From Saprospiraceae bacterium (GTDB taxonomy: Bacteria; Bacteroidota; Bacteroidia; Chitinophagales; Saprospiraceae), in the NCBI GenBank assembly GCA_014379065.1, contig JACMMM010000675.1, forward strand, positions 1 through 40,740: a stretch of DNA of 40,740 bases, written 5' to 3'. The notes beneath the pieces are model-generated. The model saw only the letters and a program-made list of their open reading frames with translations. It was not told the DNA's origin and made no database searches. The position numbers and the translations under genes were made by a program. Shown piece after piece: positions 4,321 through 29,848 of the stretch. Position 1 is the stretch's first letter, and every line of letters begins with the position of its first letter.

Positions 4321-6819
4321 TCAACGCGCTCCCGTTTTTCTACTTCGGTCGTCAAACCCTTCCAATGGATATTGTTTTTCAAAAGCCTCCTCGCCAAGCA
4401 TCTCGCGCTGATAACTGATGAAGCGCAGGAAATTATCTGTAAAAACTTCAAAGTCATCCACTCGTTCCAGAGAACTTTCTGGATTTTGAAACTCCTCCAT
4501 ATTGATTTGGTCTTTCTCTCCAGCATCGGAAAGGAACAACTTGAACAATCGCGCTACCGCTCCACCAGCCGCTGCCGTCAACACTTTTCCTGATAACGAA
4601 ACAGGGGCGAGGGTCAATTCCACCACTTTTTTCACAGCTGCACTGTTGGCCTCGCTGGCAATTCCAGAATCTTGCGATGTGTTCACATAAGAGATGTAGA
4701 AGTAAAGAAGGTAAACGTCTTCGATGCTCAGACTGCCGCGCAGGTGGCAATATTCCACGAGCAAAAGTTTGGAGTTAGCATCTAATCGGCGACTGTCGCG
4801 AATGAGCGTTGCCACTTCTCGTGCCGCATGAGGCCAAGCCTCGCTTTTGGATTTAAAATCTTCAAAACCAAGGTATTGTGTGCCTTCCCACAAGTCGTGT
4901 TTCAGTTTTTGAGCGAAAGCGGTTTCCAAATGTTCGAGTGAATGGACGCCGCTACCGGACTGCACATTAGCCTTGAATTTTTCGAGCAGAGATTTGTTTA
5001 TTTCCGCCAAACGCTCCCGACGCAATAGCCAAGCCAGTTCCTTTTCGTCGTCTGGCTTCCAATAAAAGGCGTCCCACATTTCGTGATGCTCGAAAGACTC
5101 AGCAGGGTCGCGCACCTCAGCGATGGCTTGTGCGATTTCTCGGTAGTGCGCGTAGTGTAAAATGGGTGCGAGAAAATCTTCGCCTGGTTTTTCCAAGCGA
5201 AAAGGCCGCGTCGGGAAACCCTGCAAAAAGCCTTCGCCGGGTGTTAGATCTGCTTCTCGCTCGCGAATTTCAGCGATTTTGGCTTCCATATTATCTTCGT
5301 CTGCACTCATCATCGGCAAGGTCAGCAACTGCATATAGGCTGCGGGTAGGTAGTCGTCGGCCAGTTCAAAATACTCGTGGGCTTCTATTATTTGGTCATT
5401 TGCCCAGAGAATTTGCCCGGCGTAGTAGAGTTCGCGGAGAGCGTTGTTTTCGATAAGTTCTTCGCGGGTTTCTTCGATTTGCTCGATGGCATCTTCCAAA
5501 ATGACCGCATACTCCTGCCGGAATAACTTGGCCGATTCGATATAGTAGTACAAGCCCAGCAGGTTGAGCGGAACACCCTTCGCTTTTTCATCGCCCAGCA
5601 CTTCATCATAAATTCGGTAGGCTTCAATGCAGTCACCCATGTAGTGGTTCACAAGGGCAAGGGCATGGTAGTGGGCGAGGGGTTCGTGCTTTTCGCTGCC
5701 TGAGAGATTGCGCCATTCTTCCCAGCGTTTCCAAAGGCGGCATTGTTGGTAGGTGGTGTCTACGATGGGGTCGAGAGTGTTGAATTGATCGAAATCGTCG
5801 GTGAATTTTTCGAGGGTGCGGTGGAGGAGGTAAGGGGCGGGATTTTCGTGGTAGAAGTTGAAAATCGGCACAGGATTTTGAAAAAAGGATATTCGGTTAG
5901 CAAGATAGATAAAACGATTGACATCTAACTGCGATTGATAATAGTCCATGAGTAATCGATATGAAATACCACGAATTAAGTATGCCTCTTCATAGTTTGG
6001 GTCAATTTGAATTGCTTTTTCGCAGTCAGAAATCGCTGAATGGTAATCAGTTAAATTATAACGAGCAGCACTGCGATTGGCGTAAGCCATTGCAAGATTG
6101 GGGGCAATATTTAATGCATGACCATAATCAACTATCGCTGTATGATAACTTCCAAGGCTGGCTTTAGCAAGACCACGATTGTTAAACGCTAAGGCATTTG
6201 TTGAGCAAAATTCAATGGCACTGTCATAGTCTCTAATAGAAGCCTCTGTTTCTCCTGATTTATATTTGGCGAGGCCGCGATTGTTGTACGCATCAGAAAA
6301 TTTGGGGTCAATCTCTATTGCACGGTCATAGTCTTCGATAGCAAATGTTTTATAGCCTAAGCTATATTTTGCTTGGCCGCGATTACTATAGGATATCGCA
6401 TCTTTTGGGTCAAGATGGATGGCGTAGTCATAATCGGCAATTGCTGTTATATAATGCCCCAGGCGATATTTAACGAGGGCTCGGCATCCATATGCTTTTC
6501 CATAATTCGGATCAACCTTAATTGCTTGGTCATAGTCGGCTATGGATTCCTCATTGTTCGCCAATTCTAAATTAGCAATCCCACGACCAACATAAGCCGC
6601 TACGTACTTTGGGTCAAGATCAATTGCTTGATCAAAGTCATCAATGGCGCCTTCGTAATCTCCTAACCCTGATTTAGCTAGGCCGCGACCTATATATATG
6701 TTTACATAGGTTGGATCAACCTCAAAAGATTGTCCAAAAGCCTTGATTGCTTCTTCGTATTGGCCTTTTTCGTGTTTTTCATTGCCGATTCGAAACCATT
6801 CTTCTGCCGTATGTGCCAT
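4321..6819 (-). CDS. TPR-repeat protein with a ~530-aa C-terminal region of unknown function
   Basis: The N-terminal ~300 aa hold about 8 consecutive 34-aa units of the form Y.NRG.AK..LG.Y..AI.DYD.AI..DP. The remainder has no signature I recognise. Confidence 0.8.
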   Translation of the reverse strand: MAHTAEEWFRIGNEKHEKGQYEEAIKAFGQSFEVDPTYVNIYIGRGLAKSGLGDYEGAIDDFDQAIDLDPKYVAAYVGRGIANLELANNEESIADYDQAIKVDPNYGKAYGCRALVKYRLGHYITAIADYDYAIHLDPKDAISYSNRGQAKYSLGYKTFAIEDYDRAIEIDPKFSDAYNNRGLAKYKSGETEASIRDYDSAIEFCSTNALAFNNRGLAKASLGSYHTAIVDYGHALNIAPNLAMAYANRSAARYNLTDYHSAISDCEKAIQIDPNYEEAYLIRGISYRLLMDYYQSQLDVNRFIYLANRISFFQNPVPIFNFYHENPAPYLLHRTLEKFTDDFDQFNTLDPIVDTTYQQCRLWKRWEEWRNLSGSEKHEPLAHYHALALVNHYMGDCIEAYRIYDEVLGDEKAKGVPLNLLGLYYYIESAKLFRQEYAVILEDAIEQIEETREELIENNALRELYYAGQILWANDQIIEAHEYFELADDYLPAAYMQLLTLPMMSADEDNMEAKIAEIREREADLTPGEGFLQGFPTRPFRLEKPGEDFLAPILHYAHYREIAQAIAEVRDPAESFEHHEMWDAFYWKPDDEKELAWLLRRERLAEINKSLLEKFKANVQSGSGVHSLEHLETAFAQKLKHDLWEGTQYLGFEDFKSKSEAWPHAAREVATLIRDSRRLDANSKLLLVEYCHLRGSLSIEDVYLLYFYISYVNTSQDSGIASEANSAAVKKVVELTLAPVSLSGKVLTAAAGGAVARLFKLFLSDAGEKDQINMEEFQNPESSLERVDDFEVFTDNFLRFISYQREMLGEEAFEKQYPLEGFDDRSRKTGAR

Positions 6820-6861
6820 AAGGTATTGATAATGAGGGTAAAAATATGGTAGTATAAATTT

Positions 6862-7315
6862 CGGTGCTACGCACCTTGTGTCGTGTTCTTTGGGGGATTT
6901 CTACCGACGTTTTGGCTGCTCTGCAGCGTGGCCTTGGCTTGGCTTTCCCATTGCCGCAGAGCGGCTTAACGTCGGTAGAATTGCGATTTTCGGTTTGATC
7001 AGAAGGTGCGTAGCACCGGAACTCAGTCGCGCAATGTCCCGGTGCTACGCACCTTTCCACACCTTCCCACTATTTTTCTACCGACGTTTGGCTGCTACGC
7101 AGCAAGCGCCAATACCAAGCGGTAACGTTGCTGCATAGCAGCCAAAACGTCGGTAGAAATCGTCATTGCGAATTGTTTAGGAGGTGCGTAGCACCGGAAC
7201 CCGGCGGCGCTATGTTGCGGTGCTACGCACCTTGTCACCTACCTATGCTATATTTCTACCGACGTTTGGCTGCTACGCAGCGACGCCATGGCTTGGCATT
7301 GCGCCCTGTTGCGAA
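6862..7315. repeat. REP/REPIN-like cluster left of the RAYT gene (two full ~155-bp nested-hairpin units at 6862-7018 and 7040-7196, plus a half unit from 7218)
   Basis: Outer inverted repeat is GGTGCTACGCACCT / AGGTGCGTAGCACC. Inner inverted repeat is TTCTACCGACGTT(T)TGGCTGC / ..AACGTCGGTAGAA. In unit 2 the inner stem is about 30 bp and nearly perfect. Confidence 0.85.
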
Positions 7316-7326
7316 ACAAACAATCA

Positions 7327-7806
7327 TTATTCCCATTCCACCACATCTTCCCAAAAATCGAACAAATACTTTTCCTCAAACTCAATCTCTGCTTTTCTCA
7401 GCATTTCGAGATACTCCTCGCGGAATGATTTTTTGCGGTGATGCTCGTCTTGCCTTTCAATATATGTCGCTACGGCTGGCACTTGCGAACGGCTGTACGA
7501 AAACGCTCCATACCCAATCTGCCACGCAAATTTAAATGGCGACAATTTGTTGTCATTAATAAACTCATTGGAAGACGTTTTTATCTCTTCCACCAATTTT
7601 GGCAAAGGTTGAGAAGGTCGGTAGCCGATCAAGATATGAATATGATCGGGCCGGGAATTGATTTGCAGCATTTTATGTCCGTGGTTTTGGACAATCCCTG
7701 TGATATAAGCGTGCAAGCGTTCTCGCCATGATTTTTGAATCAGGGCCTGACGATGTTTTACAGCAAAAACTAATTGGAAATGAATTTGAGTGTAGGTGTT
7801 AGCCAT
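7327..7806 (-). CDS. REP-associated tyrosine transposase (RAYT; IS200/IS605 Y1 TnpA-like)
   Basis: 159 aa. HUH motif in RPDHIHILIGY and catalytic Tyr region VATYIERQDEHH. REP-like hairpin clusters flank it on both sides. Confidence 0.85.
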   Translation of the reverse strand: MANTYTQIHFQLVFAVKHRQALIQKSWRERLHAYITGIVQNHGHKMLQINSRPDHIHILIGYRPSQPLPKLVEEIKTSSNEFINDNKLSPFKFAWQIGYGAFSYSRSQVPAVATYIERQDEHHRKKSFREEYLEMLRKAEIEFEEKYLFDFWEDVVEWE

Positions 7807-7880
7807 TTGGCAGGATTTTGAAATGAATTGAACAAAAATAGGCCAAATCCTTTAAATAAACAACTCGCCGTGGCTAGGTT

Positions 7881-8201
7881 CGGTGCTACGCACCTTATGT
7901 CATTCCTCAATGGTCTTTCTACCGACGTTTTGGCTGCTACGCAGCGACACCTTGGTTGGCTTTCCTATTGCCGCAGAGCGGCTTAACGTCGGTAGAAATT
8001 GTGATTTTGGTTCGTTCAGAAGGTGCAGCGCACCGGAACTCTGCGCTTTGCTTTCCCAATTTCATTGCTTTTCCAAAATAGTTTACGCACTGCGTAAACT
8101 ATGAAGAAATTGTGGCTTTGATTTATTGAGTAGGTACAGCGCACCGCAACCTCGTATCGAAGGTTACTTTCCTAATAATTAGACGCACTGCGTCAATTAT
8201 T
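7881..8201. repeat. REP/REPIN-like cluster right of the RAYT gene
   Basis: One full unit at 7881-8036 has the same outer and inner arms, with the right arm variant AGGTGCAGCGCACC. It is followed by two copies of a second module: AGGT(G/A)CAGCGCACCG, then a hairpin with core ACGCACTGCGT (8078-8102 and 8174-8201). Confidence 0.8.
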
Positions 8202-10678: not shown

Positions 10679-11323
10679 ATGTTTCGCGGCAAAAAAGGAA
10701 CGAGTGATGAAGGAAAAAGTTCGGGAACTTGTAATGTTTCGCATCATCTTGCGACTAATCTTTTTAAACAAAACTCTGTGGCTTTACCCGACGCAGCATT
10801 CGTTCAGTTATTGGTTCAACATCAGAACATCGTGCACAAAATCTGCCGGGCATATTGCCCATTGGTGGAAGACCAGCGCGACCTTTCTCAGGAAATCGCG
10901 CTTCAACTCTGGCGGGCCTATCCCAATTTTCGGAACGAGGCAAAAGAAAGCACTTGGATTTACCGCCTTCGTACCAATTTTTTTGCGCTCAAAAACCTGA
11001 ACAAAGGCATTTCCATGCATCAACCGCTTCGTCTGATGCTTAAGGAGTCCATCCAGTTTTGGCAATTAGGCCTGAAGGTTTACTTCTGGGGCGGAGTATT
11101 GTTGTTGCCCATTGTGTTTATGGCTGCAAGGTTGTGGCGGCAACAAACCATCGGCACTGACAGCCTCCAGTTTTTTACAGGCAGTACTCCCGTAGTTATG
11201 TTCAAGGCAGCGCTTGCCTGGGTATCTGTTTCAGCTTTGGTTTGGGTTTTAATCAAGTTTTCCTACGGGAAATATGTAGACAAACTGAAAACATGCCTCA
11301 ACGAAATGGACGCGGTGGTATGA
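10679..11323 (+). CDS. Sigma-70 region-2-like N-terminal domain fused to a two-TM C-terminal half (atypical; start uncertain)
   Basis: [56 protein letters not shown] is an ECF region 2. No region-4 HTH appears in any frame downstream. Instead there are two hydrophobic helices ([20 protein letters not shown] and [18 protein letters not shown]). An in-frame GTG at 10778 is an alternative start. Confidence 0.5.
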
Positions 11324-11336
11324 ACTGGCTCATGGT

Positions 11337-12119
11337 TCACTTCCTACGAAAAACATTTTCATCGGTTCGAATAGATGGAATGGTCAATTTGTCCTGTTCA
11401 ATATAATAGTGCCCATATTCCCGTGCATTGCCATTAACCCTATCTGTATAAAGCATTCCGCCTCCCGTACACCAAACTGTATAACTCAGGGATAATTCAT
11501 GCTCAGGTCGCTTTCCCCAAATGCGTTCCAATTTATCATCTCGGCTAAACATCATCATATTGCCGTCCGCATGAACGGAGAGATACATTGCCACACCTAC
11601 ATTTTCCCAGATGCCTATTAGGTTTGGGTCAAAATTGCAGGGGACTTGCAAGTTAGAGTCTGTTGCCTTTATGAAGGTGGAAGAGAGTGCAAACTTTTGT
11701 TTGTAATGCTCCATCCTTAGTAAATCGATTTTTTCTGGCCAGGACGATTTCCGCAATGTCACGGTTGTTCTTTCCGGGACAACTGCACTGGGGAATTGTT
11801 TAATTTCTTGTTCTGTCAAGCGGATTGAATCGCTGGCTGGATTCCCTGAAATGGTGAACCCAAAGGAGGGCTCGGCAAAAGTTTTCAAGCCGACAAAGCC
11901 AAATTTTACCTTACTGGCCGTAGTTTGGCTGTCAATTTGTACAAGGGCTACAGAATAACATTCCTTATCGTATACCAGATAGCCTTGCCAAGCATTCTTT
12001 CCAACAGATTCGATCTGAAGCGAAACCATATTACCATAGATCACCCCGGTGAAATATTGGGCGAAAAGTGGTTTTGACAACGCAAAGACAATGGTCAGGG
12101 CAATGAAAAATTTGGACAT
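11337..12119 (-). CDS. Secreted hypothetical protein
   Basis: The ATG at 12119 gives the signal peptide MSKFFIALTIVFALSKPLFAQ. The 19-aa extension in the ORF track (MKIAQKDNTFTKN..) is read-through from the M1-gene relic upstream. Confidence 0.6.
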   Translation of the reverse strand: MSKFFIALTIVFALSKPLFAQYFTGVIYGNMVSLQIESVGKNAWQGYLVYDKECYSVALVQIDSQTTASKVKFGFVGLKTFAEPSFGFTISGNPASDSIRLTEQEIKQFPSAVVPERTTVTLRKSSWPEKIDLLRMEHYKQKFALSSTFIKATDSNLQVPCNFDPNLIGIWENVGVAMYLSVHADGNMMMFSRDDKLERIWGKRPEHELSLSYTVWCTGGGMLYTDRVNGNAREYGHYYIEQDKLTIPSIRTDENVFRRK

Positions 12120-12136
12120 GGCGGACACAGCAGTTA

Positions 12137-12310
12137 GGTTTTTCGTAAACGTGTTGTCTTTCTGCGCAATCTTCACCCGCTGGCGGTAGAGTGTTTTGCC
12201 GTATTTTTTGTCGCCTTCCGGCTTAGAAAAAGCACCAATTTCTATACAGTCATTACAGGCACTTCGGTCTCTTTACCGAGTTCGTCGGCTTTGAGTTTGC
12301 GGCATTCACC
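12137..12310 (-). pseudogene. Frameshifted relic of the 3' end of an ABC-permease/M1-peptidase gene (copy of 17229-17415)
   Basis: It aligns by eye to 17253-17415 with about a dozen substitutions and a 1-nt deletion. It translates as ECRKLKADELGKETEVPVMTV-stop, then out of frame as IGAFSKPEGDKKYGKTLYRQRVKIAQKDNTFT. The intact gene reads ECRKLKADELGKETEVPVNDWIEIGAFAKPEGDKKYGKTLYRQRVKIAQKDNTFT. Confidence 0.75.
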
Positions 12311-12317
12311 TAAGTTG

Positions 12318-13913
12318 TTATTTGTTCCTAGCCACCCTAAAGCCTATAGAAGTTTGTTTGATTTCGGGGCTAAAAAAATTGCGGCAAAAGACGGTACAGC
12401 GTTTTTCCCGGTAGCTATATGCTCCGCCTCGAATAACCTTTGTGGTGCCTAAAAGCGGGCCTGGAACATTTTTAGCAGGGGTTCGGCTAGAAAAACCATC
12501 ATAATAATCTGCATGATACCAATCCCAGCACCACTCCATAACATTCCCGCTCATATCATATAACCCTAATTGATTTTTGTTTTTTAAAGAGCCCGTAGGC
12601 AATGTACGCAACCGGGCTTTATCGGCCTCAATGTTAATAAGCCCCACATCATAATTGACTGTTTCTTTAGTAATCACGTTATGCCCGTTGCCAAATTTTA
12701 CATCTTTGCCTCCTCCTCTTGCCGCATATTCCCATTCAGCTTCGGTAGGTAGCCGATAGCCATTTGCACCTGGATTTGTGGTTACTACGTTGTATTCATC
12801 TATTTTATACACTTCAGCAAATCCATCCTTTTTACTTCTCCAGTTGCAATAGTTGATGGCATCAAGCCAACTGATATTCATGACAGGACGATCACCTCGC
12901 CCCCAACCTTCATCTGGTGGTTTTGGATAATGCGTCTCCGAACAAAATGCATCATACTCCTTAAATTTCAATTCTTTTACTCCAATATAGAAGTCGGCAA
13001 CTTGTGCAGGATGAGGCGTTTCGTCTTTTTTTTCTCTATTTTTTTCTTTCTCAAATGTATTGCCCATTTCGAAAGACCCTCCAGATACCAAAGTCATCTG
13101 CGGCTTGGATTTGATTACAAGGGTATTAATCATGTCAATTGCATCCTTTTTATACCGGCAAGGCCATTGACAGGAATTAAGGTATTTTTGAATAGAGTCT
13201 AAATCTTCATAAGGGTTGACTGATAGCCAATGCAATTCATCCCTTTTTATCTGGTTTATTAGATTTGTTTTCCTGTCCAATGCCTTTCGCTTATATATGC
13301 ATAAACATATTGGGCCACAATATGGTGGATTGCAATATTTTAGATATTCTGAATCAATTTTATTAGGGTCATTTGTATTTTCTACGGATTTCCATCTGTT
13401 TAAATCAATACTGATTAGATTGTTAAGGGTGTCAATTCTTGCCAAGGCTTGCTTTGAATAGGCACAATTGGTTTCTTGTTTGCATTTATCAAGGTATTCC
13501 GATTGTATGTATGCCGGGTCAATGGATTTTTTTACTTTATTCCAAAGTTGTTCATCAAGCTCTGGGTTGGAGGGAAATTGATTTCTTTGATCCTCTCCTT
13601 TGAAATCATCCTTTTTATCATCATGATTCGGAATATATTTCTCAATTTCTTTTTGCGTTTCTTTAATTTTTAACTCCAAGCTATGGCAATCATCCTTGTT
13701 GATGGCAAGTTTATCCGGATTTGTGCAGCAACTTGAAGATAATCCATCCTTATATACCCTAAGAGCGGATTGTAATTTGCTTATTTTCTTGTCCCGAACG
13801 CCCATTTGATATAGGCTATCCCCATTGTTTAAAAAAGGATAGCAACATGGTTTACCCTGAGCGGATAACAATACAGGGAACACGAACAGAAATAGGTAGA
13901 AAAAATGTCTCAT
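12318..13913 (-). CDS. Secreted protein: Cys-rich helical repeats plus a C-terminal FGE-sulfatase (SUMF1/EgtB/PvdO-fold) domain
   Basis: Signal peptide MRHFFYLFLFVFPVLLSAQ. Three repeats follow the pattern W..V....D...I..EYL..C....C.YK..A...I..L. The C-terminal half has MTLVSGGSFEMGN, RPVMNISWLDAINYCNW, YRLPTEAEWEYAARGG, YDMSGNVMEWCWDWY, RGGAY and GFRVARN, which are classic FGE-sulfatase fold motifs. Confidence 0.8.
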   Translation of the reverse strand: MRHFFYLFLFVFPVLLSAQGKPCCYPFLNNGDSLYQMGVRDKKISKLQSALRVYKDGLSSSCCTNPDKLAINKDDCHSLELKIKETQKEIEKYIPNHDDKKDDFKGEDQRNQFPSNPELDEQLWNKVKKSIDPAYIQSEYLDKCKQETNCAYSKQALARIDTLNNLISIDLNRWKSVENTNDPNKIDSEYLKYCNPPYCGPICLCIYKRKALDRKTNLINQIKRDELHWLSVNPYEDLDSIQKYLNSCQWPCRYKKDAIDMINTLVIKSKPQMTLVSGGSFEMGNTFEKEKNREKKDETPHPAQVADFYIGVKELKFKEYDAFCSETHYPKPPDEGWGRGDRPVMNISWLDAINYCNWRSKKDGFAEVYKIDEYNVVTTNPGANGYRLPTEAEWEYAARGGGKDVKFGNGHNVITKETVNYDVGLINIEADKARLRTLPTGSLKNKNQLGLYDMSGNVMEWCWDWYHADYYDGFSSRTPAKNVPGPLLGTTKVIRGGAYSYREKRCTVFCRNFFSPEIKQTSIGFRVARNK

Positions 13914-13926
13914 TAATCAAGAATTG

Positions 13927-15354
13927 TTATTTTTTATAGTATTCATAAAGGTTTTTATAAAAAGTGGAATCCTTTGGATGATATATTATAGAAACCATAA
14001 TGTCTCCAAAAATATCCTCATAAGAATAAGAATGCTTAGCCCATTCAGCATAAGTATCAACCCGATCTTGGCGATACTCTAATCTTTTTATAGATTCATT
14101 AGCTTCACCTTTATAAGCACCGTTTGGGAACGCGCTATTGAAATTTTTCCAAACCGGAAGCGTGTCTAGCCGTCGTGCCTCTTGGATGGCCATGTCTTCT
14201 TTTTTTGATATAGGATTAGGTTTGGGGGGAATAATGCAAGTAATAAAAATCAGGAAGGCTAATGCAATTACAGCATAGGAAATCAATTTCCCGTGCCTCT
14301 CCCAAACATCAGACAATATTTGGTATATATTTGGGAGGCTGGGAGGTGCCTTAGTATTAGTTGAGTTTTTGTGGTTATTGGATGTTGTCGGAACTTCTTT
14401 TTGTATAGGCTTCTGCGACGTTCTCTGGCGACCCGACTGACTAGGTTTTATTTTATTTTTGATTTCTTTTTCGAGTACTTGAACAGGAGGTGCTGGAATC
14501 GGATTTATATCCGCTATGTTTTCAAGTTTTGCAATTTCCAATCCACATTCGGAAATTCGACTTTCCACTAAAACGCGATCTACTTCAAACCCTGACTCCC
14601 AATTTTCATGCGCCTTTTCATACATTTTTATGGCTTGGCTCCAATTTCTTTGATCCCTAAAGTCCTCAGCCACCTTCATTGAAGAAAGAAACATACTTTT
14701 CCTACTTTCAAATTGTCGCGCCTCATTTTCCTTGGCGATCTGCTCCTGGCATAGTATGATCTTTTGGTTAATCTCTTCTTTTTCAGGTTTCAAATCCAGT
14801 TGCCAGAAAGCGAGTGCAGATGTAAATTTCGAAAGCGATCCTTCCCATTGTTGCGTATTAAACAGATCATCGGCATCTTTAATTAGCCCTTCAAACGCTT
14901 TCTTGTTGCGGCGTTTTTTGGCAACCAGCTCAATTTGTTCTGTAACCTCGTATACCGCATCATCTAAATTCTTTTGCCTCATAGGTATCCCGTCTGTAGG
15001 CAAATATTTTATAGGTTTTAAAGGCGTATGCTCCAGACTACATGGGCCGATTTTAACGGGTATAACAATTGCCTCACCGTCTATATGCCTTTGGACAGCT
15101 TTGTCCATATAATCCGAATAAAAATAATCAGAACCTAAGGCATCTGTACTGACCAACAAAACAATTATTTCAGCACGTAAAAGTTGAGCGTTTAATATAT
15201 CCAAAGTTACATCTCCAGGGAGTATGTCATTCTCATCCCCTATTACAATAATTCCAGTCTTAGCCAAGGGAGTCAACCCTTTTCTAAGTTTATCCCTGAC
15301 CACTTTATCTTCGACTACACTAGCCAGAAGAACATTAATTGGCTTCATTTGCAC
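13927..15354 (-). CDS. Membrane-anchored TIR-like domain protein (cytoplasmic TIR_2-like N-terminus, helical region, low-complexity linker, one TM, extracytoplasmic C-terminal module)
   Basis: ILPGDVTLDILNAQLLRAEIIVLLVSTDALGSDYFYSDYMDKAVQRHIDGEAIVIPVKIGPC....LKPIKYLPTDGIPM tracks the bacterial TIR_2 pattern (ILPG..W...I...L..ADIILLLIS.DFLASDYCY..EM..A.ERH..GEARVIPI.LRPC......L.ALP.DGKP). The TM helix is LISYAVIALAFLIFITCIIPP. The gene is 13 nt from the FGE-domain gene, so they are probably co-transcribed. Confidence 0.65.
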   Translation of the reverse strand: MQMKPINVLLASVVEDKVVRDKLRKGLTPLAKTGIIVIGDENDILPGDVTLDILNAQLLRAEIIVLLVSTDALGSDYFYSDYMDKAVQRHIDGEAIVIPVKIGPCSLEHTPLKPIKYLPTDGIPMRQKNLDDAVYEVTEQIELVAKKRRNKKAFEGLIKDADDLFNTQQWEGSLSKFTSALAFWQLDLKPEKEEINQKIILCQEQIAKENEARQFESRKSMFLSSMKVAEDFRDQRNWSQAIKMYEKAHENWESGFEVDRVLVESRISECGLEIAKLENIADINPIPAPPVQVLEKEIKNKIKPSQSGRQRTSQKPIQKEVPTTSNNHKNSTNTKAPPSLPNIYQILSDVWERHGKLISYAVIALAFLIFITCIIPPKPNPISKKEDMAIQEARRLDTLPVWKNFNSAFPNGAYKGEANESIKRLEYRQDRVDTYAEWAKHSYSYEDIFGDIMVSIIYHPKDSTFYKNLYEYYKK

Positions 15355-15373
15355 TCTAAAGCTACGTTTTTAA

Positions 15374-15422
15374 CAAAGGTAGACATATTTGTTAAAATGC
15401 TGCTAGAAACATTTTATCTTTG
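15374..15422. promoter_or_regulatory. Divergent promoter region: TACCTTTG on the minus strand (15374-15381) and TATCTTTG on the plus strand (15415-15422)
   Basis: Both match TAnnTTTG. The minus box is 20 nt from the TIR-gene ATG (15354). The plus box is 55 nt from the ATG at 15477. Confidence 0.45.
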
Positions 15423-15476
15423 TCCCTGAATCACAAGATACCATCCTATACCTCACCCTATAACTTTTAGAATGTA

Positions 15477-17045
15477 ATGAAAAAACTCCTTACGTCCTCT
15501 TTTCGAATCACAATTCGAACCTTGGTTTTGCTGCTTGGCCTTTTGTCTTTTGAATGCCAAGGGCTAACACAGTCTTTGCCTGACAGTTTAACTTTTGTTC
15601 CCCAACCGGAAGCGTCCTTTTTTAAAGCATTTTTTGTTGATTTGACATCAGGCCCGGTTTACAGAAAAGAGAAACGAGCCATTAGAAAGTTCTTAAGAGA
15701 TGCTGATGATGAAAAACTTGAAGCTTATATACATCGGCTTGAAGTGGATGGAGAAGACAAAGAAATTATGTTGAGGAATTTCCCTTTTGTGTATTACGTT
15801 TTATTAAATTCATGGTATCGCTGTGCTAACCAGAAGCATTACAATAAAGATCTCGCTTATCGCTATGGTTCCATAGCAGCAGAATATGGCAGACAGAATA
15901 CATTTAGTGAGGACGATGCTGTTTTAGTGCGCAAGGTTACTAAATTCGCTAAAAAGTATGAAAGTGTATGTTTGCCTTATGGAAAAATAAAAAAACCTAG
16001 AGAGCTAGTTGTTTTCATGGCAGAAGAGCGACACAAATATATCTTAGAAAAAACGACTGCGGTTAAAGAAGTTGGTGAAGATAGTGAAAAAATAAGAGTG
16101 AAGTTGGAACCTCTCGAAAAAAAGTCACTCCAACTTGCGAAGGAGATTGCTGATTTAGAAAAACAATTAATCAGTACTAAATCAGAAATTAGAGGTCTTT
16201 CAATGCAAAACTATGAGGATGCTTTAAAGGACATTGATGCCTTGATCAAAAAAAACGAGATTAGTCGTGGAAGCGGTAATGTAACACTTGACACGACTTT
16301 GGCAGGAGGGGCCAGGTTCATAAACAGTTCTGAAATTACAAGTGACACGATTAGTTCCACGATATATAATACCGGGTATAAGAAAGGGGTTTTTTGCTCG
16401 CCAGAAATTCGATCTGCCACTAATAAGATCGTTTCAACTATCTTTAAAATAGCAGATTTCCAGAAGAAAACGGAAAGAGTTTCACCTGACTATTTAAAAA
16501 AAATACAATTTAATGTCACCATAACAGGAAAAGCAGACGGAGATAAAGTAAAGCGTAGAAATGGGGTTTGTACTTTGAAAAATAATGATTCATCTCCAAT
16601 AACAGGGGAATATTATACTGGAGGGGATATCGAGTTTAGAAACCCAATTAAAGTAAATATTGCACCTGGCGGTCCTATTTGCGACGAAGAACTGGCATTT
16701 TTGCGCGCTCATTGTGCCTATTCAGAATTAAAGATAATTTTACCAGAATTCGGAATCCCCGCTTCCAATATAAATCCAAAGATTATCGTAAGGGTATACG
16801 ACGAAATAGGCCCGGAGTACCGCGGGATTGATTTAGAATTTAATGTGGACAAGCTGTTCGTTCATTTAAGAAACGAGATTGACAAGAAATATGCTGAGAA
16901 GCAAATAGTTGATGAAAAAATCGCAGATTTAAGGCGTCAACTGCAAGAAAATGCAGAAAAAATTACCGATATCAAAAAACCCTGGGTTAAAGAAGACAAA
17001 ATTATAAAAGAGAAACTTGAGGAAATAAAATTATATAAAGCATGA
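15477..17045 (+). CDS. Secreted coiled-coil hypothetical protein, possibly with a degenerate OmpA/MotB-like module
   Basis: There is a signal peptide (TLVLLLGLLSFECQG). Coiled-coil segments are LEPLEKKSLQLAKEIADLEKQLISTKSEI and EKQIVDEKIADLRRQLQENAEKI. The segments VTITGKADGD ... EELAFLRAHCAYSELKIILPEFGI ... YRGIDLEFNV loosely recall the OmpA_C pattern I.GHTD..G ... N..LS..RA..V...L ... NRRVE. This is a weak call. Confidence 0.55.
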   Translation: MKKLLTSSFRITIRTLVLLLGLLSFECQGLTQSLPDSLTFVPQPEASFFKAFFVDLTSGPVYRKEKRAIRKFLRDADDEKLEAYIHRLEVDGEDKEIMLRNFPFVYYVLLNSWYRCANQKHYNKDLAYRYGSIAAEYGRQNTFSEDDAVLVRKVTKFAKKYESVCLPYGKIKKPRELVVFMAEERHKYILEKTTAVKEVGEDSEKIRVKLEPLEKKSLQLAKEIADLEKQLISTKSEIRGLSMQNYEDALKDIDALIKKNEISRGSGNVTLDTTLAGGARFINSSEITSDTISSTIYNTGYKKGVFCSPEIRSATNKIVSTIFKIADFQKKTERVSPDYLKKIQFNVTITGKADGDKVKRRNGVCTLKNNDSSPITGEYYTGGDIEFRNPIKVNIAPGGPICDEELAFLRAHCAYSELKIILPEFGIPASNINPKIIVRVYDEIGPEYRGIDLEFNVDKLFVHLRNEIDKKYAEKQIVDEKIADLRRQLQENAEKITDIKKPWVKEDKIIKEKLEEIKLYKA

Positions 17046-17149: not shown

Positions 17150-20100
17150 TTACCTTTTCAGCTCCTTCACATTGTCCTTCGGCTCCCGGTCTATCAATAT
17201 CCTAAACGGATCAATGCCCGCCTTATCCGGTTTTTCATCTACCAGAAACGTGAACGTGTTGTCTTTCTGCGCAATCTTTACCCGCTGGCGGTAGAGTGTT
17301 TTGCCGTATTTTTTGTCCCCTTCCGGTTTTGCAAAAGCCCCGATTTCTATCCAGTCATTCACCGGCACCTCGGTCTCCTTGCCGAGTTCGTCGGCTTTGA
17401 GTTTGCGGCATTCCACTTGAATGGTTAACTCATATTTTCCATTGCCGAGTTCTTTCATCGAGGCCTCTTTGGTCTTGTTCTCAAACAGCGTGATGTCCCA
17501 GAACAAGTCCTGAATGATGTATTTCAGCGAATCCGGTGTCTGTGCCGCAAATTCATTCACCACATCAATGCTGGTCGGGTACGGCGGGGCCTTGTAGCGG
17601 AATTTTTCCAAAAACGCCTTTAAGCCAGCATTCACCTTGTCTTCGCCGATCATCTCCTTGAGGTAGTACATCACTGCCGAGCCTTTGTTGTAGTGGATGT
17701 AGCCCTGCCGTTCGCATTTCGCGAGCGGCATTTCGCGCAGGGTTTCGCGGCCTCGGTCTCGGAGGTATTTGTCCGTTTCATACTCCAAAAACTTGCGCAT
17801 CACATCGCGGCCATATTCGTGTTCCATCACCATAAGTGCGGAATATTGGGCGAAGGTCTCGGTGGTCATTTCCGCGCCCTGCATGTTCGCGCCGCATTCT
17901 TGGTGTGCCCACCATTGATGGCCCATCTCGTGCGCCACCACATAGTACACCATGTCGATATCGTCTTTTTCCTGTCGGAAATCTTCGATAAAACCAATGC
18001 CTTCAGAATACGGCATGGTGCCAGGGAAGGCCTGGGCAAATTCCGCATACCGGGGAAACTCTATGATGCGGCATTGTTTGTGGTAGTAAGGCCCGAAGTG
18101 GGCGGTATAATATTCTATGCTTTTTTGCATGGATTTCAGCATACGCGGCACGTTTCGGGCATGGTCGGCATGGTAGTACACCTCGTAAGTGATGCCTTCT
18201 TTTTGTTCCCGTGCCACCTCATAGTGTGCAGACAGGAAGGAGTAAAAATTCCAGGCTTTGTGGTCAAGTTTGTAGTGGAAAATGCGGCGATCCCCCTCCG
18301 TCTTTTCACTGAGGAGCGAACCCGGTGCGATGGCAATCTGATCGGCAGAAGTGCTGATCGTGGTTTCTACGGTGACCCAATCCGAGTCAATGCTGAGATA
18401 TTGGTTGCTGCGGGCGGCAAGGTTGGCCGTGTCGAGTGGCGGCATCCGTGTCTTTTCGGGCAGGCCATACTCGCGGCGTTTGTTTTTTTCGCTGAGCTCG
18501 CCGCCTTCGTGGTAGCCAAAGGTGGGCGAGATGTCACCGTTGTTGAAAAAGGTACCGTTTTGCATGATGCTTGTGTTCGACAGTTCGTTTTCAAAACCTT
18601 TGGCGCGATATACCGTGTTGAATTTCAACAACATAGAATCTCCCGGAGCAAGTGTGGGGTTGATTTTGTAAAAGCGCAAGTAAAGCGTCGAGTCGTTGAG
18701 CAAGAGGGCGAGGCGTGGATTATCAAATTGAAAATCGCCTTGCGAAGGAATGTGCATGAACAAGGTGTCGATCGGCTTTGCGTGTATGTTGCGCACCCAC
18801 ATTTGGCCATCGGCCTCGTAAGTACGAGTTTCGGGGAAAATGCGGATGTCGTATTTCAGGTCGTAAGTGCGTGGCTGCGGGAATCCTTGAAAATGCTTGT
18901 ACTCGTTTTCGTACCGCGCCATGCGTTTCTCCTGCGTGTTTTCGCTGACGGGTTTGTTCGAAATTTTGGTGTTGTAATAAACAAAGCCCGCACTGCAAAT
19001 CCATACCGCGAGTAGGCCCAATCCTACAATTCTGTACGTTTTCCATTCTTGCCTGGCCAGCGAGAGGCGTTTGCGCCAACCAGACTCTTTGCCGCGCGGC
19101 CAAAGGCAGATTGCCACGATCGCCAGCAAACCGCTGATCAACAGCCAGTAAGAATGAAACCATGTAAGTCCTTGTGCGTAAGGCAGATAGCCGTAAAGGT
19201 CGCTGACGGTGTACGAGGGGGTGCCACCGAGTTTCACCATGTTGCTCGAAATGTCGATAACGCCCCACACAAAAGAGTTGACCGCTACCAGAACAATGCA
19301 GATGAAAAACCCAAGGTACATGTTGGGCGACACCGCATGAATGAACATGAACAATGCGGCCAGAAAGGCAAAGCCCAGCACATCGAGCACCAGCAGTTCG
19401 CGGATATAAACACCTAGTTCAAAACGGTCGTAGCCATGCAAGGCTTGAGCGCACACGGCAGCGATTATGGCGACGAGATTCAGCAAGAACACCACCGAAA
19501 CGATGGTGCCGTATTTTGCCAAATAGCCCGTCCAAGTGCGGGTGGGCAACGCGTCATAGATTTCATTGACTTTGGCTGTGCGCTCTTTCCACACCAGTGC
19601 ACCCGTGAAATAAGTCAGGATAGAAATGGTGAACAGGTAAAACGCACCCCGCACGATGTCCACCATCGTGTAGGTTACGGGCAGGTTGTGGGTGCCGTAA
19701 CCATCGGTGGCGTATTGAAAACTGGGGATGCAATTGAGCAGCCCGATAAAAGTGAGCAGGATAAACGGGGTGCTTTTGATAACGCCATTGAAGTCGGTGC
19801 GCATTTGACTCCACAGTTGGCGGAGGGTGGTAGAAGTACCAACTCCCGGCGTGACACGGGGCAATTCACCGAGTTGCTTGAGACCGTATTCCTCTGGTTC
19901 TGAGATGGTTTTAGCCTTTTTGCCGCCCTTCATTTTTTCGGCAAAATCAAACTTAAAATACCCTGCAATAAGCACGGCCAAACCGACGGCCATCCAAAGC
20001 AAACGGTTCACCAAGATGCCGGGCGCAAAGAGGCTGACCGATTGGTGGTTCTTCTCGTCCACAGTCCAATACTTCGTAAGTATGGAAAAAGAGCGACTGC

Positions 20101-20746
20101 CAAAGGGATCCAGAAGGCTTGCCACTTGTTCATTCTGCATATCCCGCATCAGGTTGCCCGCTATGATGTACCCCACCAAAAGCACTACGGCTGCCACGAA
20201 GGAGTACATGGTGCTGCGGGTAAGCACGGCTACTGCGTAAAGAATCCCTCCGGCAAAAATCATGTTGGGGATCACCACGGTAATGTATGCGTTGAGGTGT
20301 CCCTGAAACTCAAAAGGCCCAAACCGCGATGCATCCACCCAACCCATTGCAGGCCCGATCACAGCCCCTATCCACATGCCCAAAGACACGCCCAACATCG
20401 GGATTAAAGCAACCAACAACGCCCCGGCGAAATGGCCAAAATAGTAGCCCGCCTTGCTGATCGGGGAGGAAAAAACGATTTGGGAAGTATTGCTCTCAAA
20501 ATCGCGGACAGCAGCGCCATTGAGGAACGCCACCACGAGCAACAAGGAGAGGATGGAAAACACGACATACCAGTTCTGCGCCACAAATGGGGCGTTTTTC
20601 CAGACGTTGCCGTAGGAGCCGCCGATTTGAATCTCGTCGCTGACAGTGGCCCCGAAGGTCATCAGAGCAAAGACGAAGAGGAAAATCCAAGGCATGGGCG
20701 AGCGCAACCATGCCTTTATTTCAAAAGAGAAAAAGGTGCTAAACAT
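17150..20746 (-). CDS. ABC-2-type transporter permease fused to an M1-family aminopeptidase domain
   Basis: 1198 aa. The N-terminal ~560 aa hold many TM helices, as in ABC-2 permeases. The C-terminal half carries the M1 zinc site VVAHEMGHQWW ... ETFAQY and an aminopeptidase-N-like C-terminus. It lies directly downstream of the ABC ATPase gene. Confidence 0.85.
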   Translation of the reverse strand: MFSTFFSFEIKAWLRSPMPWIFLFVFALMTFGATVSDEIQIGGSYGNVWKNAPFVAQNWYVVFSILSLLLVVAFLNGAAVRDFESNTSQIVFSSPISKAGYYFGHFAGALLVALIPMLGVSLGMWIGAVIGPAMGWVDASRFGPFEFQGHLNAYITVVIPNMIFAGGILYAVAVLTRSTMYSFVAAVVLLVGYIIAGNLMRDMQNEQVASLLDPFGSRSFSILTKYWTVDEKNHQSVSLFAPGILVNRLLWMAVGLAVLIAGYFKFDFAEKMKGGKKAKTISEPEEYGLKQLGELPRVTPGVGTSTTLRQLWSQMRTDFNGVIKSTPFILLTFIGLLNCIPSFQYATDGYGTHNLPVTYTMVDIVRGAFYLFTISILTYFTGALVWKERTAKVNEIYDALPTRTWTGYLAKYGTIVSVVFLLNLVAIIAAVCAQALHGYDRFELGVYIRELLVLDVLGFAFLAALFMFIHAVSPNMYLGFFICIVLVAVNSFVWGVIDISSNMVKLGGTPSYTVSDLYGYLPYAQGLTWFHSYWLLISGLLAIVAICLWPRGKESGWRKRLSLARQEWKTYRIVGLGLLAVWICSAGFVYYNTKISNKPVSENTQEKRMARYENEYKHFQGFPQPRTYDLKYDIRIFPETRTYEADGQMWVRNIHAKPIDTLFMHIPSQGDFQFDNPRLALLLNDSTLYLRFYKINPTLAPGDSMLLKFNTVYRAKGFENELSNTSIMQNGTFFNNGDISPTFGYHEGGELSEKNKRREYGLPEKTRMPPLDTANLAARSNQYLSIDSDWVTVETTISTSADQIAIAPGSLLSEKTEGDRRIFHYKLDHKAWNFYSFLSAHYEVAREQKEGITYEVYYHADHARNVPRMLKSMQKSIEYYTAHFGPYYHKQCRIIEFPRYAEFAQAFPGTMPYSEGIGFIEDFRQEKDDIDMVYYVVAHEMGHQWWAHQECGANMQGAEMTTETFAQYSALMVMEHEYGRDVMRKFLEYETDKYLRDRGRETLREMPLAKCERQGYIHYNKGSAVMYYLKEMIGEDKVNAGLKAFLEKFRYKAPPYPTSIDVVNEFAAQTPDSLKYIIQDLFWDITLFENKTKEASMKELGNGKYELTIQVECRKLKADELGKETEVPVNDWIEIGAFAKPEGDKKYGKTLYRQRVKIAQKDNTFTFLVDEKPDKAGIDPFRILIDREPKDNVKELKR

Positions 20747-28666: not shown

Positions 28667-29848
28667 TTGCCGTACCTTGTGGCTTCATCTGCTGCTACGA
28701 CTTTGACCATCGCATTCGACGCAAAACGCTATTTCAACAACGCCACTGGCCTCGGCTTTTATAGCCGAACGTTGCTGGAGGGTCTGCGCCGTTTTTACCC
28801 GGAACACCAATACTTGCTCTATACGCCTTACAACCGAGGGCAATGGGCAAAGCCTGAGGACGATATGAAATTGCCCGATTCCTGGATGGGGAGAACCTTT
28901 CACCCGCTGTGGCGCAGCCGGGGCATTACAGCCCAATTACAGCGCGATGGTGTGAAGGTATTTCACGGACTGAGCCACGAACTCCCTACAGGCCTACGCC
29001 GGGCGGGTATTCGCAGCTTGGTGACGATGCACGACCTGATTTTCATGCGCTACCCGGACTTGTACCCAACCATTGACCGTTTTTTTTATGAAAAAAAATA
29101 CCGTCGCGCAGCGGAAGAGGCCGATAAAGTGGTGGCTATCAGTGAACAAACACGGTCTGATTTGGAGCAGTTTTTCGATATCCCGGCACAAAACGTGCAA
29201 GTCATCGGTCAATCCTGCGATGCCGTATTTGAACGACTAAGCCTCCGTGAGCGGCCAGATCGTTTGGCCTTGCCGCTACCCAATGGCTTGGATATTCCGG
29301 CTTCCGATTACATCATTTCAGTGGGAAGCCTCACGCCCCGAAAAAATTGGCATAGGTTGCTCGACGCGCTTTTTTTGCTCAAAAATCAGGGGCAAGAGCT
29401 GCCGCTTGTCGCGATAGGCGCGGGCAATAGCGCCTATTCTAAAGGTCTTCGCACACAAGCCGAACAGCTCGGCGTTCAAGTATATTGGCTCGATCAATTT
29501 GTGACGACGGAGGAACTAGCGCGGCTATACCGACGGGCAGCAGCACTCGTGTATCCTTCCGTATTTGAAGGTTTTGGTATCCCCATTCTGGAAGCCATGA
29601 CGGTGGGGATTCCTGTGGTGACAACGCGCGGCGGCTGCTTCGAGGAGGTAGGTGGCCCGGCGGCTTTATACGCCGACACGAATAATGCGGAGAATTTGGC
29701 GCATCAGATTTCTGCGGTTTTGGACAACAGTGTTCGCACTGAATTGATTTCAAAAATGCGGGCGCAAATTGAGCAATTTTCTCCTGAAAGGATATGCGCT
29801 GCGTGGATGGAGGTGTATAGCGGTCAGGTGACTTTGAGGCGTCTGTAA
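28667..29848 (+). CDS. Glycosyltransferase family 4 (GT-B, group 1)
   Basis: The segment LVYPSVFEGFGIPILEAMTVGIPVVTTRGGCFEEVGG is the EX7E region. The true start is probably the in-frame TTG at 28703, which gives MTIAFDAKRYF, a typical family N-terminus. Confidence 0.85.
   Translation: MPYLVASSAATTLTIAFDAKRYFNNATGLGFYSRTLLEGLRRFYPEHQYLLYTPYNRGQWAKPEDDMKLPDSWMGRTFHPLWRSRGITAQLQRDGVKVFHGLSHELPTGLRRAGIRSLVTMHDLIFMRYPDLYPTIDRFFYEKKYRRAAEEADKVVAISEQTRSDLEQFFDIPAQNVQVIGQSCDAVFERLSLRERPDRLALPLPNGLDIPASDYIISVGSLTPRKNWHRLLDALFLLKNQGQELPLVAIGAGNSAYSKGLRTQAEQLGVQVYWLDQFVTTEELARLYRRAAALVYPSVFEGFGIPILEAMTVGIPVVTTRGGCFEEVGGPAALYADTNNAENLAHQISAVLDNSVRTELISKMRAQIEQFSPERICAAWMEVYSGQVTLRRL

Follow-up and report, generated by a model that had tools for sequence, protein, structure and literature searches.

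A rare Bacteroidota cassette of a membrane TIR protein without the NADase glutamate, an exported FGE-fold protein and an exported coiled-coil protein

Domains of the FGE-sulfatase fold (FGS) are proposed invader sensors (PMC8195603, PMC7159879, PMC10907252). Their combinations with TIR or caspase domains are described, in the literature searched, only in intracellular STAND, vWA or EAD systems, often diversified by diversity-generating retroelements (DGRs), and effector swapping is typical of conflict systems (PMC7159879, PMC8195603). Such lectin-type sensors are predicted to be mainly intracellular (PMC7159879, PMC8195603), with some CLec sensors predicted to face the periplasm (PMC10907252). 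Here, we describe a three-gene cassette in a 40,740-nt stretch of DNA from a Saprospiraceae bacterium (contig JACMMM010000675.1), the whole of which is called the window. The cassette encodes a protein with a cytoplasmic TIR domain and one transmembrane (TM) helix (the TIR-TM protein), an exported FGE-fold protein (the FGE protein) and an exported coiled-coil (CC) protein.

The trio is inherited as a unit, and its TIR domain lacks the catalytic glutamate of the TIR NADases throughout the family. Our preferred reading, which we hold tentatively and somewhat short of an even chance, is that of a mobile, receptor-like sensor complex of the inner membrane and periplasm, in which TIR would serve as a scaffold. 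This three-gene envelope arrangement had no description in the literature searched.

Compared with the FGS lectin-sensor systems, the trio similarly combines an apparently non-enzymatic FGE-fold domain with the TIR or caspase theme, shares the predicted invader sensing and resides in filamentous or complex hosts, Saprospiraceae included. However, those systems are built as one mostly cytoplasmic polypeptide with NTPase regulators, whereas the trio has a separate exported FGS protein and a separate single-pass TIR protein. It also adds a dedicated coiled-coil partner and lacks an NTPase, an EAD and a DGR. Neither an NTPase nor a reverse transcriptase came up close to the block or in the window's open reading frames (ORFs) of at least 150 aa.

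The Bacteroidota caspase-FGE and caspase-CC fusions are alike in having FGE relatives, the same hairpin repeats and the same α/β core as the CC protein. They carry an intact caspase in the same polypeptide, whereas the corresponding slot of the trio is taken by a glutamate-less TIR on a separate membrane protein. Earlier work had already described caspase-FGE fusions, Haliscomenobacter included (PMC3501461).

A preliminary description, made from the letters of the window, had recognised no named defence system in the three genes, and none emerged here. PADLOC gave a ThsB-type TIR model alone, with no ThsA or Zor among the four proteins scanned. Membership in Thoeris is rejected: the window TIR matches the PADLOC ThsB1 model (E=6e-23), but no ThsA (SIR2/SLOG or Macro-TM) is found among the four island-region proteins and the catalytic glutamate is absent. 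The TIR-TM protein differs also in being membrane-anchored with an external tail.

Zorya (PMC11946911) is the nearest functional analogy rather than a homologous system. The likeness, by analogy, lies in an inner-membrane complex that has long coiled coils and a periplasmic part which may bind peptidoglycan, and in an envelope event relayed inward. The trio differs in having no MotAB-like channel, ZorC, ZorD or ZorE, and no multi-pass membrane protein is encoded in the block. Membership is rejected here too, as PADLOC gave no Zor match; the Foldseek resemblance to ZorB was not significant, with E=0.8 on a poor model.

The TIR of animal Toll-like and IL-1 receptors signals as a scaffold. These receptors are the nearest architectural analogy, with homology limited to the TIR fold: they share the single pass, an external recognition side and a cytoplasmic TIR without the NADase glutamate. 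However, the TIR is N-terminal in the window protein (type II), so the orientation is reversed, and the receptors have leucine-rich-repeat or immunoglobulin ectodomains whereas the trio has a short TPR-like tail and a separate lectin subunit. Moreover, no adaptor TIR was identified for the trio.

Conservation and mobility of the three-gene unit

The three ORFs lie where the preliminary description had placed them. The genes and their parts are as follows.

12318..13913, minus: gene of the exported FGE-sulfatase-fold (FGS, C-type-lectin-like) protein, 531 aa (ORF listing and Pfam, E=9e-49)
12327..13106, minus: FGE-sulfatase-fold domain, residues 270-529 (alignment to S. coelicolor FGE 6muj and TvpA)
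13927..15354 (GTG, 475 aa) or 13927..15348 (ATG, 473 aa), minus: TIR-TM gene
13930..14223, minus: extracytoplasmic tail of two BamD/CpoB-type TPR-like hairpins (PDB profile matches)
14230..14286, minus: single TM helix, LISYAVIALAFLIFITCII (hydropathy peak 2.81)
14971..15342, minus: TIR domain (alignment to AbTir and BtTir and family alignment)
15355..15476: divergent control region, a 122-nt spacer with TAnnTTTG boxes at 15374-15381 (minus) and 15415-15422 (plus)
15477..17045, plus: gene of the exported CC protein, 522 aa
16260..16862, plus: conserved α/β core of the CC protein, residues 262-462 (motifs ITGKADG, (N/D)EELAFLRA and YRGVD)

The TIR gene probably starts at the ATG at 15348 rather than the GTG at 15354, because the homologues begin with MKP or MEP at the position of the third residue. 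The boxes claimed for both strands of the spacer were located as listed, and TAnnTTTG is a putative Bacteroidota-type -7 motif, a label carried over from the preliminary description. A scan for σ70-type promoters and terminators gave counts equal to the shuffle expectation and was uninformative.

Word-indexed searches returned three relatives of the TIR-TM protein and one of the CC protein, and the genomic context was reached via the full-length matches of the FGE protein. Among these FGE relatives (35-56% identity), a TIR_2 gene directly precedes the FGE gene wherever the flank suffices, the two genes overlapping by 4 nt or standing 5-13 nt apart. The largest gap is that of the window (13 nt), the homologues having 5-7 nt or the overlap.

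These TIR proteins are homologous to that of the window, TM helix and tail included. Wherever upstream sequence is available, a divergent gene of 490-560 aa lies upstream of the pair, and it encodes a CC homologue (30-37% identity by local BLAST, E 1e-72 to 1e-107). A scan of a genome collection seeded with the CC protein gave three loci, and two Saprospiraceae metagenome-assembled genomes (MAGs) carry the same trio. A metagenome scan added one Runella-like locus.

Co-occurrence, on which the preliminary description had staked its interpretation, is thus found as the same divergent arrangement in at least six lineages below 60% identity. The arrangement spans 23-56% identity, Runella and Saprospiraceae included. 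It is present in the window and in L001, L003/L004, L005-L008, L010-L012 and L014, and is partial in L002 and L009. The lineages are as follows.

Lineage 1: the window and L001
Lineage 2: L002, TIR and FGE genes, the sequence upstream being truncated
Lineage 3: L003, L004 and L014 (Runella sp.)
Lineage 4: L005-L008
Lineage 5: L009, TIR, CC and LamG genes, the FGE gene lying beyond the contig end
Lineage 6: L010-L012 (Saprospiraceae)

The three proteins diverge in parallel, with identities of 23-45% for TIR-TM, 34-56% for FGE and 30-44% for CC. Because the gene order recurs and the divergence is parallel, we take the three genes to be one conserved unit, inherited together. They are under purifying selection. 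When the window is compared with L001, each of the three genes has a ratio of nonsynonymous to synonymous divergence (dN/dS) of about 0.21; between L003 and L014, the trio genes have 0.14-0.27. The flanking aconitase and M1-peptidase genes have 0.03-0.04, the cassette being 5-7 times higher.

Two independent sub-modules in juxtaposition would be another account, one being the TIR-TM/FGE pair and the other a CC unit with or without LamG. A gene for a LamG protein follows the CC gene in four TIR/FGE lineages and is missing from the window lineage, the two units have opposite, divergent directions of transcription, and CC with LamG occurs without TIR or FGE in L013, where the upstream is cut, and in L015/L016. 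The trio may therefore be two sub-modules. However, every TIR-TM/FGE pair with enough flank, over at least five lineages, has a divergent CC gene beside it; the parallel divergence of the three proteins also speaks against separate units, and exactly three genes lie between the direct repeats in the window and L001. We consider this account very unlikely.

The repeats that bound the cassette are as follows.

12144..12307: left direct repeat and left island boundary, a fragment duplicated from the 3′ terminus of the ABC2/M1-peptidase gene, 92% identical to 17249-17413
17249..17413: right direct repeat of about 165 nt, in the 3′-terminal part of the ABC2/M1-peptidase gene (17150-20746, minus)
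8045-8185 and 13044-13181 of L001: equivalent repeats of 141 nt, 93% identical, directly flanking its three genes

The cassette is inserted in the 3′ end of the ABC2-permease/M1-peptidase fusion gene, duplicating 140-165 nt, and in both the window and L001 exactly the three trio genes lie between the repeats. Inside the window cassette there is no integrase or transposase, and two viral scans found the cassette in no viral contig. Its GC content is 0.377, the remainder of the window having 0.483; along the window, GC drops to 0.34-0.40 at about 13-17 kb with about 0.5 on either side. The cassette is 10-17 GC points under its flanks in five lineages, which are all those with informative flanks. 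The acquired island proposed before is borne out by the GC contrast and by the repeats of about 165 nt on both sides.

Between the window and L001, synonymous divergence (dS) is 0.18-0.29 for the trio and 0.70 and 1.26 for the adjacent core genes. This points to an exchange of the cassette after the hosts diverged, because the dS of the trio is 3-5 times under that of the core genes. Alternatively, slower synonymous rates in the AT-rich cassette may cause the low dS.

The TIR catalytic position and the three proteins

The TIR domain is a genuine TIR fold, of the flavodoxin-like βαβαβ kind. Pfam TIR_2 matches the TIR-TM protein under its gathering threshold (E=3e-5) and the homologue in L012 above it (38.6 bits), while the PADLOC ThsB1 TIR model covers residues 8-152 (E=6e-23). 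A PDB profile search with six family members matched BtTir, AbTir, Cat1 and TIR-STING. With an AlphaFold2 (AF2) model built on a shallow alignment (mean pLDDT confidence 65), the leading Foldseek matches were nearly all TIR domains at a probability of 1.0.

TIR NADases carry a catalytic glutamate in αC within W-x3-E, such as E208 of AbTir, E85 of ThsB and E642 of SARM1. To our knowledge, all characterised TIR NADases and cyclases require it. In the profile alignment, Tyr82 of the window TIR occupies the catalytic Glu column of AbTir and BtTir (WTNYE and WTEYE). The alignment to these two is gap-free from the Trp position, which is Phe in the window protein, through the conserved G....P motif. 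Across the family, five lineages have Tyr in this column, whereas L005 has Thr and L010-L012 have Gln.

The neighbouring acids vary as well, being D/D/K/L/T/N/N in the D81 column and D/D/D/E/E/K/S in the D84 column. Two lineages without any nearby acid still keep the system under selection, and P0004, a cytoplasmic TIR-TPR relative, keeps Glu in the same register. NAD+ cleavage is thus unlikely as a conserved output of this TIR, because the Glu is replaced family-wide and the two acid-free lineages remain under selection.

This bears on the classical model, which was that of the preliminary description. Therein, periplasmic sensing by the FGE protein activates TIR for abortive infection or signalling through NAD+ degradation or a cyclic-ADPR-type signal. 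The confirmed fold and the ThsB-type match agree with it, the βA ‘ED’ and BB-loop ‘WDExD..G’ motifs look similar to their counterparts in the bacterial NADases AbTir and BtTir, and Asp residues at 81 and 84 flank the catalytic position in the window protein. However, the Glu column is substituted as above, the flanking acidic positions are not conserved, P0004 retains the Glu in register, and the nearby genes encode nothing like ThsA and no other effector that a signal would activate. The model is distinctly improbable by our estimate, and the notion of this TIR as an effector or signal generator is not supported, with Tyr, Thr or Gln throughout the family where P0004 keeps Glu.

The TIR domain is among the best-conserved parts of its protein, with 67% identity between the window and L002 against 44% for the whole protein. 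This argues for a binding or assembly role, because the domain stays highly conserved though Glu-less.

From the N-terminus, the TIR-TM protein consists of the cytoplasmic TIR, a TPR-like helical domain, a basic Ser/Thr/Pro/Lys linker, the TM helix and a periplasmic two-hairpin tail. It has no signal peptide and a single TM helix at about residues 357-375, preceded by the K/R/S/T/P-rich linker and followed by the 98-aa tail. An equivalent hydrophobic segment is found by hydropathy in four lineages and is sub-threshold in L003. Residues 130-280 are helical in the AF2 model, mostly at high confidence. A weak TPR_12 match was found, and TPR and BamD structures are among the Foldseek matches of the full-length model.

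Profiles, AF2 with Foldseek and hydropathy thus agree on the TIR_2-like domain, helical region, linker, TM helix and external tail as originally described. The envelope-spanning topology proposed for the trio holds too, with a TIR lacking a signal peptide and having one TM helix, and with signal peptides on the FGE and CC proteins and likewise on the LamG proteins.

The FGE protein matches Pfam PF03781 over profile positions 2-255 of 255 (166.9 bits against a cut-off of 23.3, E=9e-49). Its closest PDB structure is the ligand-binding variable protein TvpA of Treponema denticola, 2y3c (5.7e-27), followed by true FGEs at about 1e-18 and PorK/GldK at about 1e-12. The hallmark of FGE is a catalytic copper-binding cysteine pair, C-x4-C, in the motif RGGS..C..S.C. 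The first catalytic Cys aligns to Tyr, RGGAYSYREKRC against RGGSYLCHDSYC, and in an alignment of seven homologues the second FGE Cys alone is conserved. An FGE enzyme (SUMF1/FGE) is thus ruled out by the replacement of the first catalytic Cys. Because this Cys is lost and the domain is closest to TvpA-type domains, we infer a non-enzymatic lectin-type FGS domain like that of TvpA.

Two other identities were rejected for the FGE protein. A GldK/PorK ring lipoprotein of the type IX secretion system (T9SS) is its top NCBIfam match, TIGR03525, but scores 110 bits against a cut-off of 350, and there is no lipobox. A DGR target of the TvpA kind would come with a reverse transcriptase nearby, a template repeat matching its 3′ variable region and a hypervariable C-terminus. 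This is discounted since the window holds no repeat of the 3′ end of the FGE gene and no reverse transcriptase among its ORFs of at least 150 aa, and since the window and L001 proteins hardly differ at the C-terminus.

The signal peptide of the FGE protein is of the cleavable type with the site SAQ|G (...LLSAQ|G). The N-terminus then carries a conserved CCxP(F/Y)L motif and three repeats, W..YL..C..C.Y...A...L, which form TPR-like hairpins. Pfam and alignment thereby agree with the earlier account of 12318-13913 as a signal peptide, three Cys-containing repeats and an FGE-sulfatase fold.

The tail of the TIR-TM protein weakly matches BamD 9n2d and CpoB 6g5s (PDB profile E about 0.05-0.1), with a hairpin pattern of F..(F/Y)P.S.Y...A...I..L common to the tail, BamD and CpoB(YbgF). 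By hhalign, the tail against two consecutive N-terminal repeats of the FGE protein scored 20.1, which beats the reversed control and the maximum of 60 column shuffles (17.1). The resemblance of tail and repeats noticed before is hence weak but real, the score standing above all 60 shuffles. The same hairpin type sits between caspase and FGE domain in Haliscomenobacter P0085. A docking surface made of the shared hairpins is predicted as plausible.

The CC protein consists in order of a signal peptide, a helical N-domain, a coiled coil, the α/β core and a C-terminal coiled coil. Its AF2 model (shallow alignment, pLDDT 52) has long helices at 174-258 and 458-521 and a βαβαββ unit at about 262-456. 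The near-invariant motifs of the family, ITGKADG, (N/D)EELAFLRA and YRGVD, are confined to the α/β unit. The protein matches no curated family, and Pfam on six CC homologues gave coiled-coil noise and nothing else. PDB profile searches with the protein or its core gave no OmpA-like match, and the Foldseek matches of the model were non-significant (ZorB E=0.8, Pal E=1.8).

A direct comparison by hhalign of 43 CC members with the classical OmpA-like domains of OmpA, Pal, OprF, P6 and RmpM, whose sequences were entered by hand, scored 23.4 (P=0.0026). The controls were lower, with a maximum of 15.7 in 40 shuffles, 15.3 for the reversed profile, 10.5 for TIR and 14.1 for FGE. GKADG, LAFLRA and YRGVD align in order to GHTD..G, LS.RRA and NRRV, and D354 and R410 are invariant. 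OmpA-like domains (PF00691) have a βαβαββ fold with conserved D and R residues that contact peptidoglycan. A single-sequence hhalign of the core covered the first motif alone. The βαβαββ unit is compatible with an OmpA-like fold, on a poor model. The core may have an OmpA-like fold for peptidoglycan binding, into which about 40 aa are inserted. For this third protein, the signal peptide and the two long helices stand as first described, and the OmpA-like module is weakly supported, with no Pfam or PDB match.

An exhaustive HMMER search of 1.84 billion representatives gave no more than 45 CC clusters at E<=1e-3, of which 14 reached E<=1e-30. The α/β core is common to 44 of the 45, the exception being P0165, which matches only the N-terminal helical domain. 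Among ten longer or distant members scanned, seven have a Peptidase_C14 caspase domain, including all five of 780-845 aa. Three were inspected: P0140 and P0144 combine an intact His/Cys dyad with a signal peptide at the N-terminus, and P0166 has no signal peptide. The gene of P0144 adjoins a secreted 720-aa LamG gene and an outer-membrane protein (OMP) β-barrel gene, with TIR and FGE absent. Whatever the trio does, the CC/α-β core defines a new, very rare protein family that also carries secreted caspases.

Many of the FGE domains nearest to that of the window are likewise fused to caspases, and caspase-FGE relatives are 45-48% identical. Because the CC core and the closest FGE domains are both also fused to caspases, the trio would thus belong to a set of periplasm-facing modules with caspase and TIR in interchangeable positions.

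Several related loci deserve record. L015 (8001-13320) and L016 encode an 804-aa fusion of caspase and CC core with His/Cys intact, together with the 720-aa LamG protein and a 226-aa OMP β-barrel; this apparent operon has the look of a caspase module of the periplasm that is related to the third gene of the window. In a MAG labelled Rikenella microfusus, L013 (198-6494) has three tandem CC paralogues and then a 723-aa LamG gene, the contig starting just upstream. The Runella-type loci have an extra secreted 172-aa paralogue of the CC N-terminal helical domain (L003 5939-6457, L014 5348-5866) and a second FGE paralogue. Between the 172-aa gene and the CC gene of L014 lies a 455-aa ORF (6330-7697), with an N-terminus that is transposase-like by look alone.

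A proposed receptor-like sensor complex and the competing readings

The preferred reading can be worded as five steps. The FGE protein is exported, as its signal peptide and disulfide-type Cys motifs show, and would bind a ligand as a non-enzymatic lectin. Its hairpin repeats would dock on the two-hairpin tail of the TIR-TM protein, as the shared repeat type suggests. Co-translation of TIR and FGE is also suggested because their genes are adjacent or overlapping.

The exported CC protein would oligomerise and anchor or organise the complex in the periplasm, possibly on peptidoglycan. The binding of a ligand, or a disturbance of the envelope such as a phage or some other invader may cause, would shift the clustering of the TIR-TM protein. 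The cytoplasmic TIR and TPR-like module would then signal by assembly. A scaffold rather than NAD+ cleavage is proposed because the catalytic Glu is absent across the family.

As to the biological role, conflict or defence would be the most likely. The conflict or signalling interpretation given at first survives in its acquired island, its idea of a ligand-binding FGE fold and its lack of a named system, and loses the catalytic output of TIR. The trio would extend the known conflict modules of TIR or caspase with FGS, its conservation and unusual design being solid and its function wholly inferred.

Several points weigh against the sensor-complex reading. The FGE and CC proteins have no PADLOC match, and no enzymatic effector is recognisable in the trio. 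No locus lies in a recognisable defence island, the genes around being those for aconitase, ABC transporter, KatG, Mur ligase and glycosyltransferases. The hairpin motif type is widespread, so its sharing is no proof of binding. The AF2 models are of low confidence (pLDDT 52 for CC and 65 for TIR-TM), Pfam and PDB sequence searches do not confirm the OmpA-like assignment of the CC core, and CC with LamG does occur without TIR or FGE in L013 and L015/L016.

Another reading is an envelope-architecture module outside any conflict. This would be a Tol-Pal/CpoB-like or GldJ/K-like scaffold tethering the inner membrane, peptidoglycan and perhaps the outer membrane, with TIR/TPR as a cytoplasmic oligomerisation platform. 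It agrees with hairpins of the CpoB/BamD type, a core that is possibly OmpA/Pal-like, GldK/PorK as the top NCBIfam match of the FGE domain, hosts that are T9SS/gliding Bacteroidota, neighbours that are housekeeping or envelope genes, and the OMP β-barrel gene beside the caspase variant.

However, the occurrence is rare and sporadic, with 45 clusters among 1.84e9 representatives, the GC content is foreign in the five lineages with informative flanks, and horizontal exchange appears recent. Moreover, dN/dS is 5-7 times above the value for the adjoining core genes, caspase effectors are swapped in among relatives, the GldK score is 110 against the cut-off of 350, and the FGE protein is not a lipoprotein. 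We rate such a module as rather unlikely, ahead of the classical TIR model.

A bolder form of the sensor-complex reading takes the trio as a functional analogue of a Toll-like receptor. Recognition in the periplasm, by a separate lectin-fold subunit and a wall-anchored CC co-receptor, would be relayed across the inner membrane through TIR/TPR assembly by a single-pass receptor with a non-catalytic TIR, which would recruit a cytoplasmic partner. We regard this as improbable, about on a par with the classical model. If true, this pathway would be the first in bacteria to signal through a transmembrane TIR of the scaffold type.

The sensor-complex reading itself has consequences in two ways. One is that the trio puts a Glu-less TIR behind a TM helix with the lectin partner in the periplasm. 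As far as we know, bacterial TIR proteins studied to date act as NAD+-consuming enzymes. If the reading is true, there would be scaffold-type TIR signalling in bacteria, which bears on the relation of Toll-like-receptor-style signalling to bacterial immunity. The other is that, if the trio is a defence system, invaders would be recognised before or during envelope crossing. We know of few systems with such recognition (Zorya and HXS).

Neighbouring genes and repeats in the window

The window cassette is flanked by the genes for aconitase and the ABC2/M1 peptidase, and in L001, as in the window, the flanking genes are of the housekeeping type. A neighbourhood of known defence genes, which the preliminary description had considered for the homologues, was seen in none of the loci examined. 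Adjoining the aconitase gene of L001 at 15486-16471 is a UPF0175/DUF3368 pair, which is toxin-antitoxin-like. No such pair is among the window ORFs of at least 150 aa scanned, a scan that mostly misses genes so short.

A stretch of about 1.4 kb in the window (10772-12143) is absent from L001, which is 88%-related. It includes a truncated sigma-70 region-2 ORF (10679-11323) and a 279-aa ORF (11337-12176) that starts in-frame inside the duplicated M1-peptidase fragment (‘KIAQKDNTFT’). The stretch is probably a secondary insertion or a chimeric ORF.

Farther to the left, REP-like repeats with GC-rich hairpins occupy 6898-8150 (families D2, D3, D6, D7, D9, I1 and I2). They surround an IS200-like Y1 transposase gene (7327-7806) in a REPtron-like arrangement.

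To the right, a GT4 glycosyltransferase gene (28667-29848) also passes Pfam GT4-conflict (29.1 bits against a cut-off of 26). It probably encodes an ordinary glycosyltransferase, because the generic Glycos_transf_1 match is much stronger. Finally, about ten copies of a 12-nt tandem repeat, TTTTCCATACCC, lie at 29986-30157 within a minus-strand YhgA-like (Transposase_31) gene. The repeat probably encodes (GYGK)n, the frame being unchecked, and Pfam reports this (GYGK)n-type repeat as Yae1_N-like.

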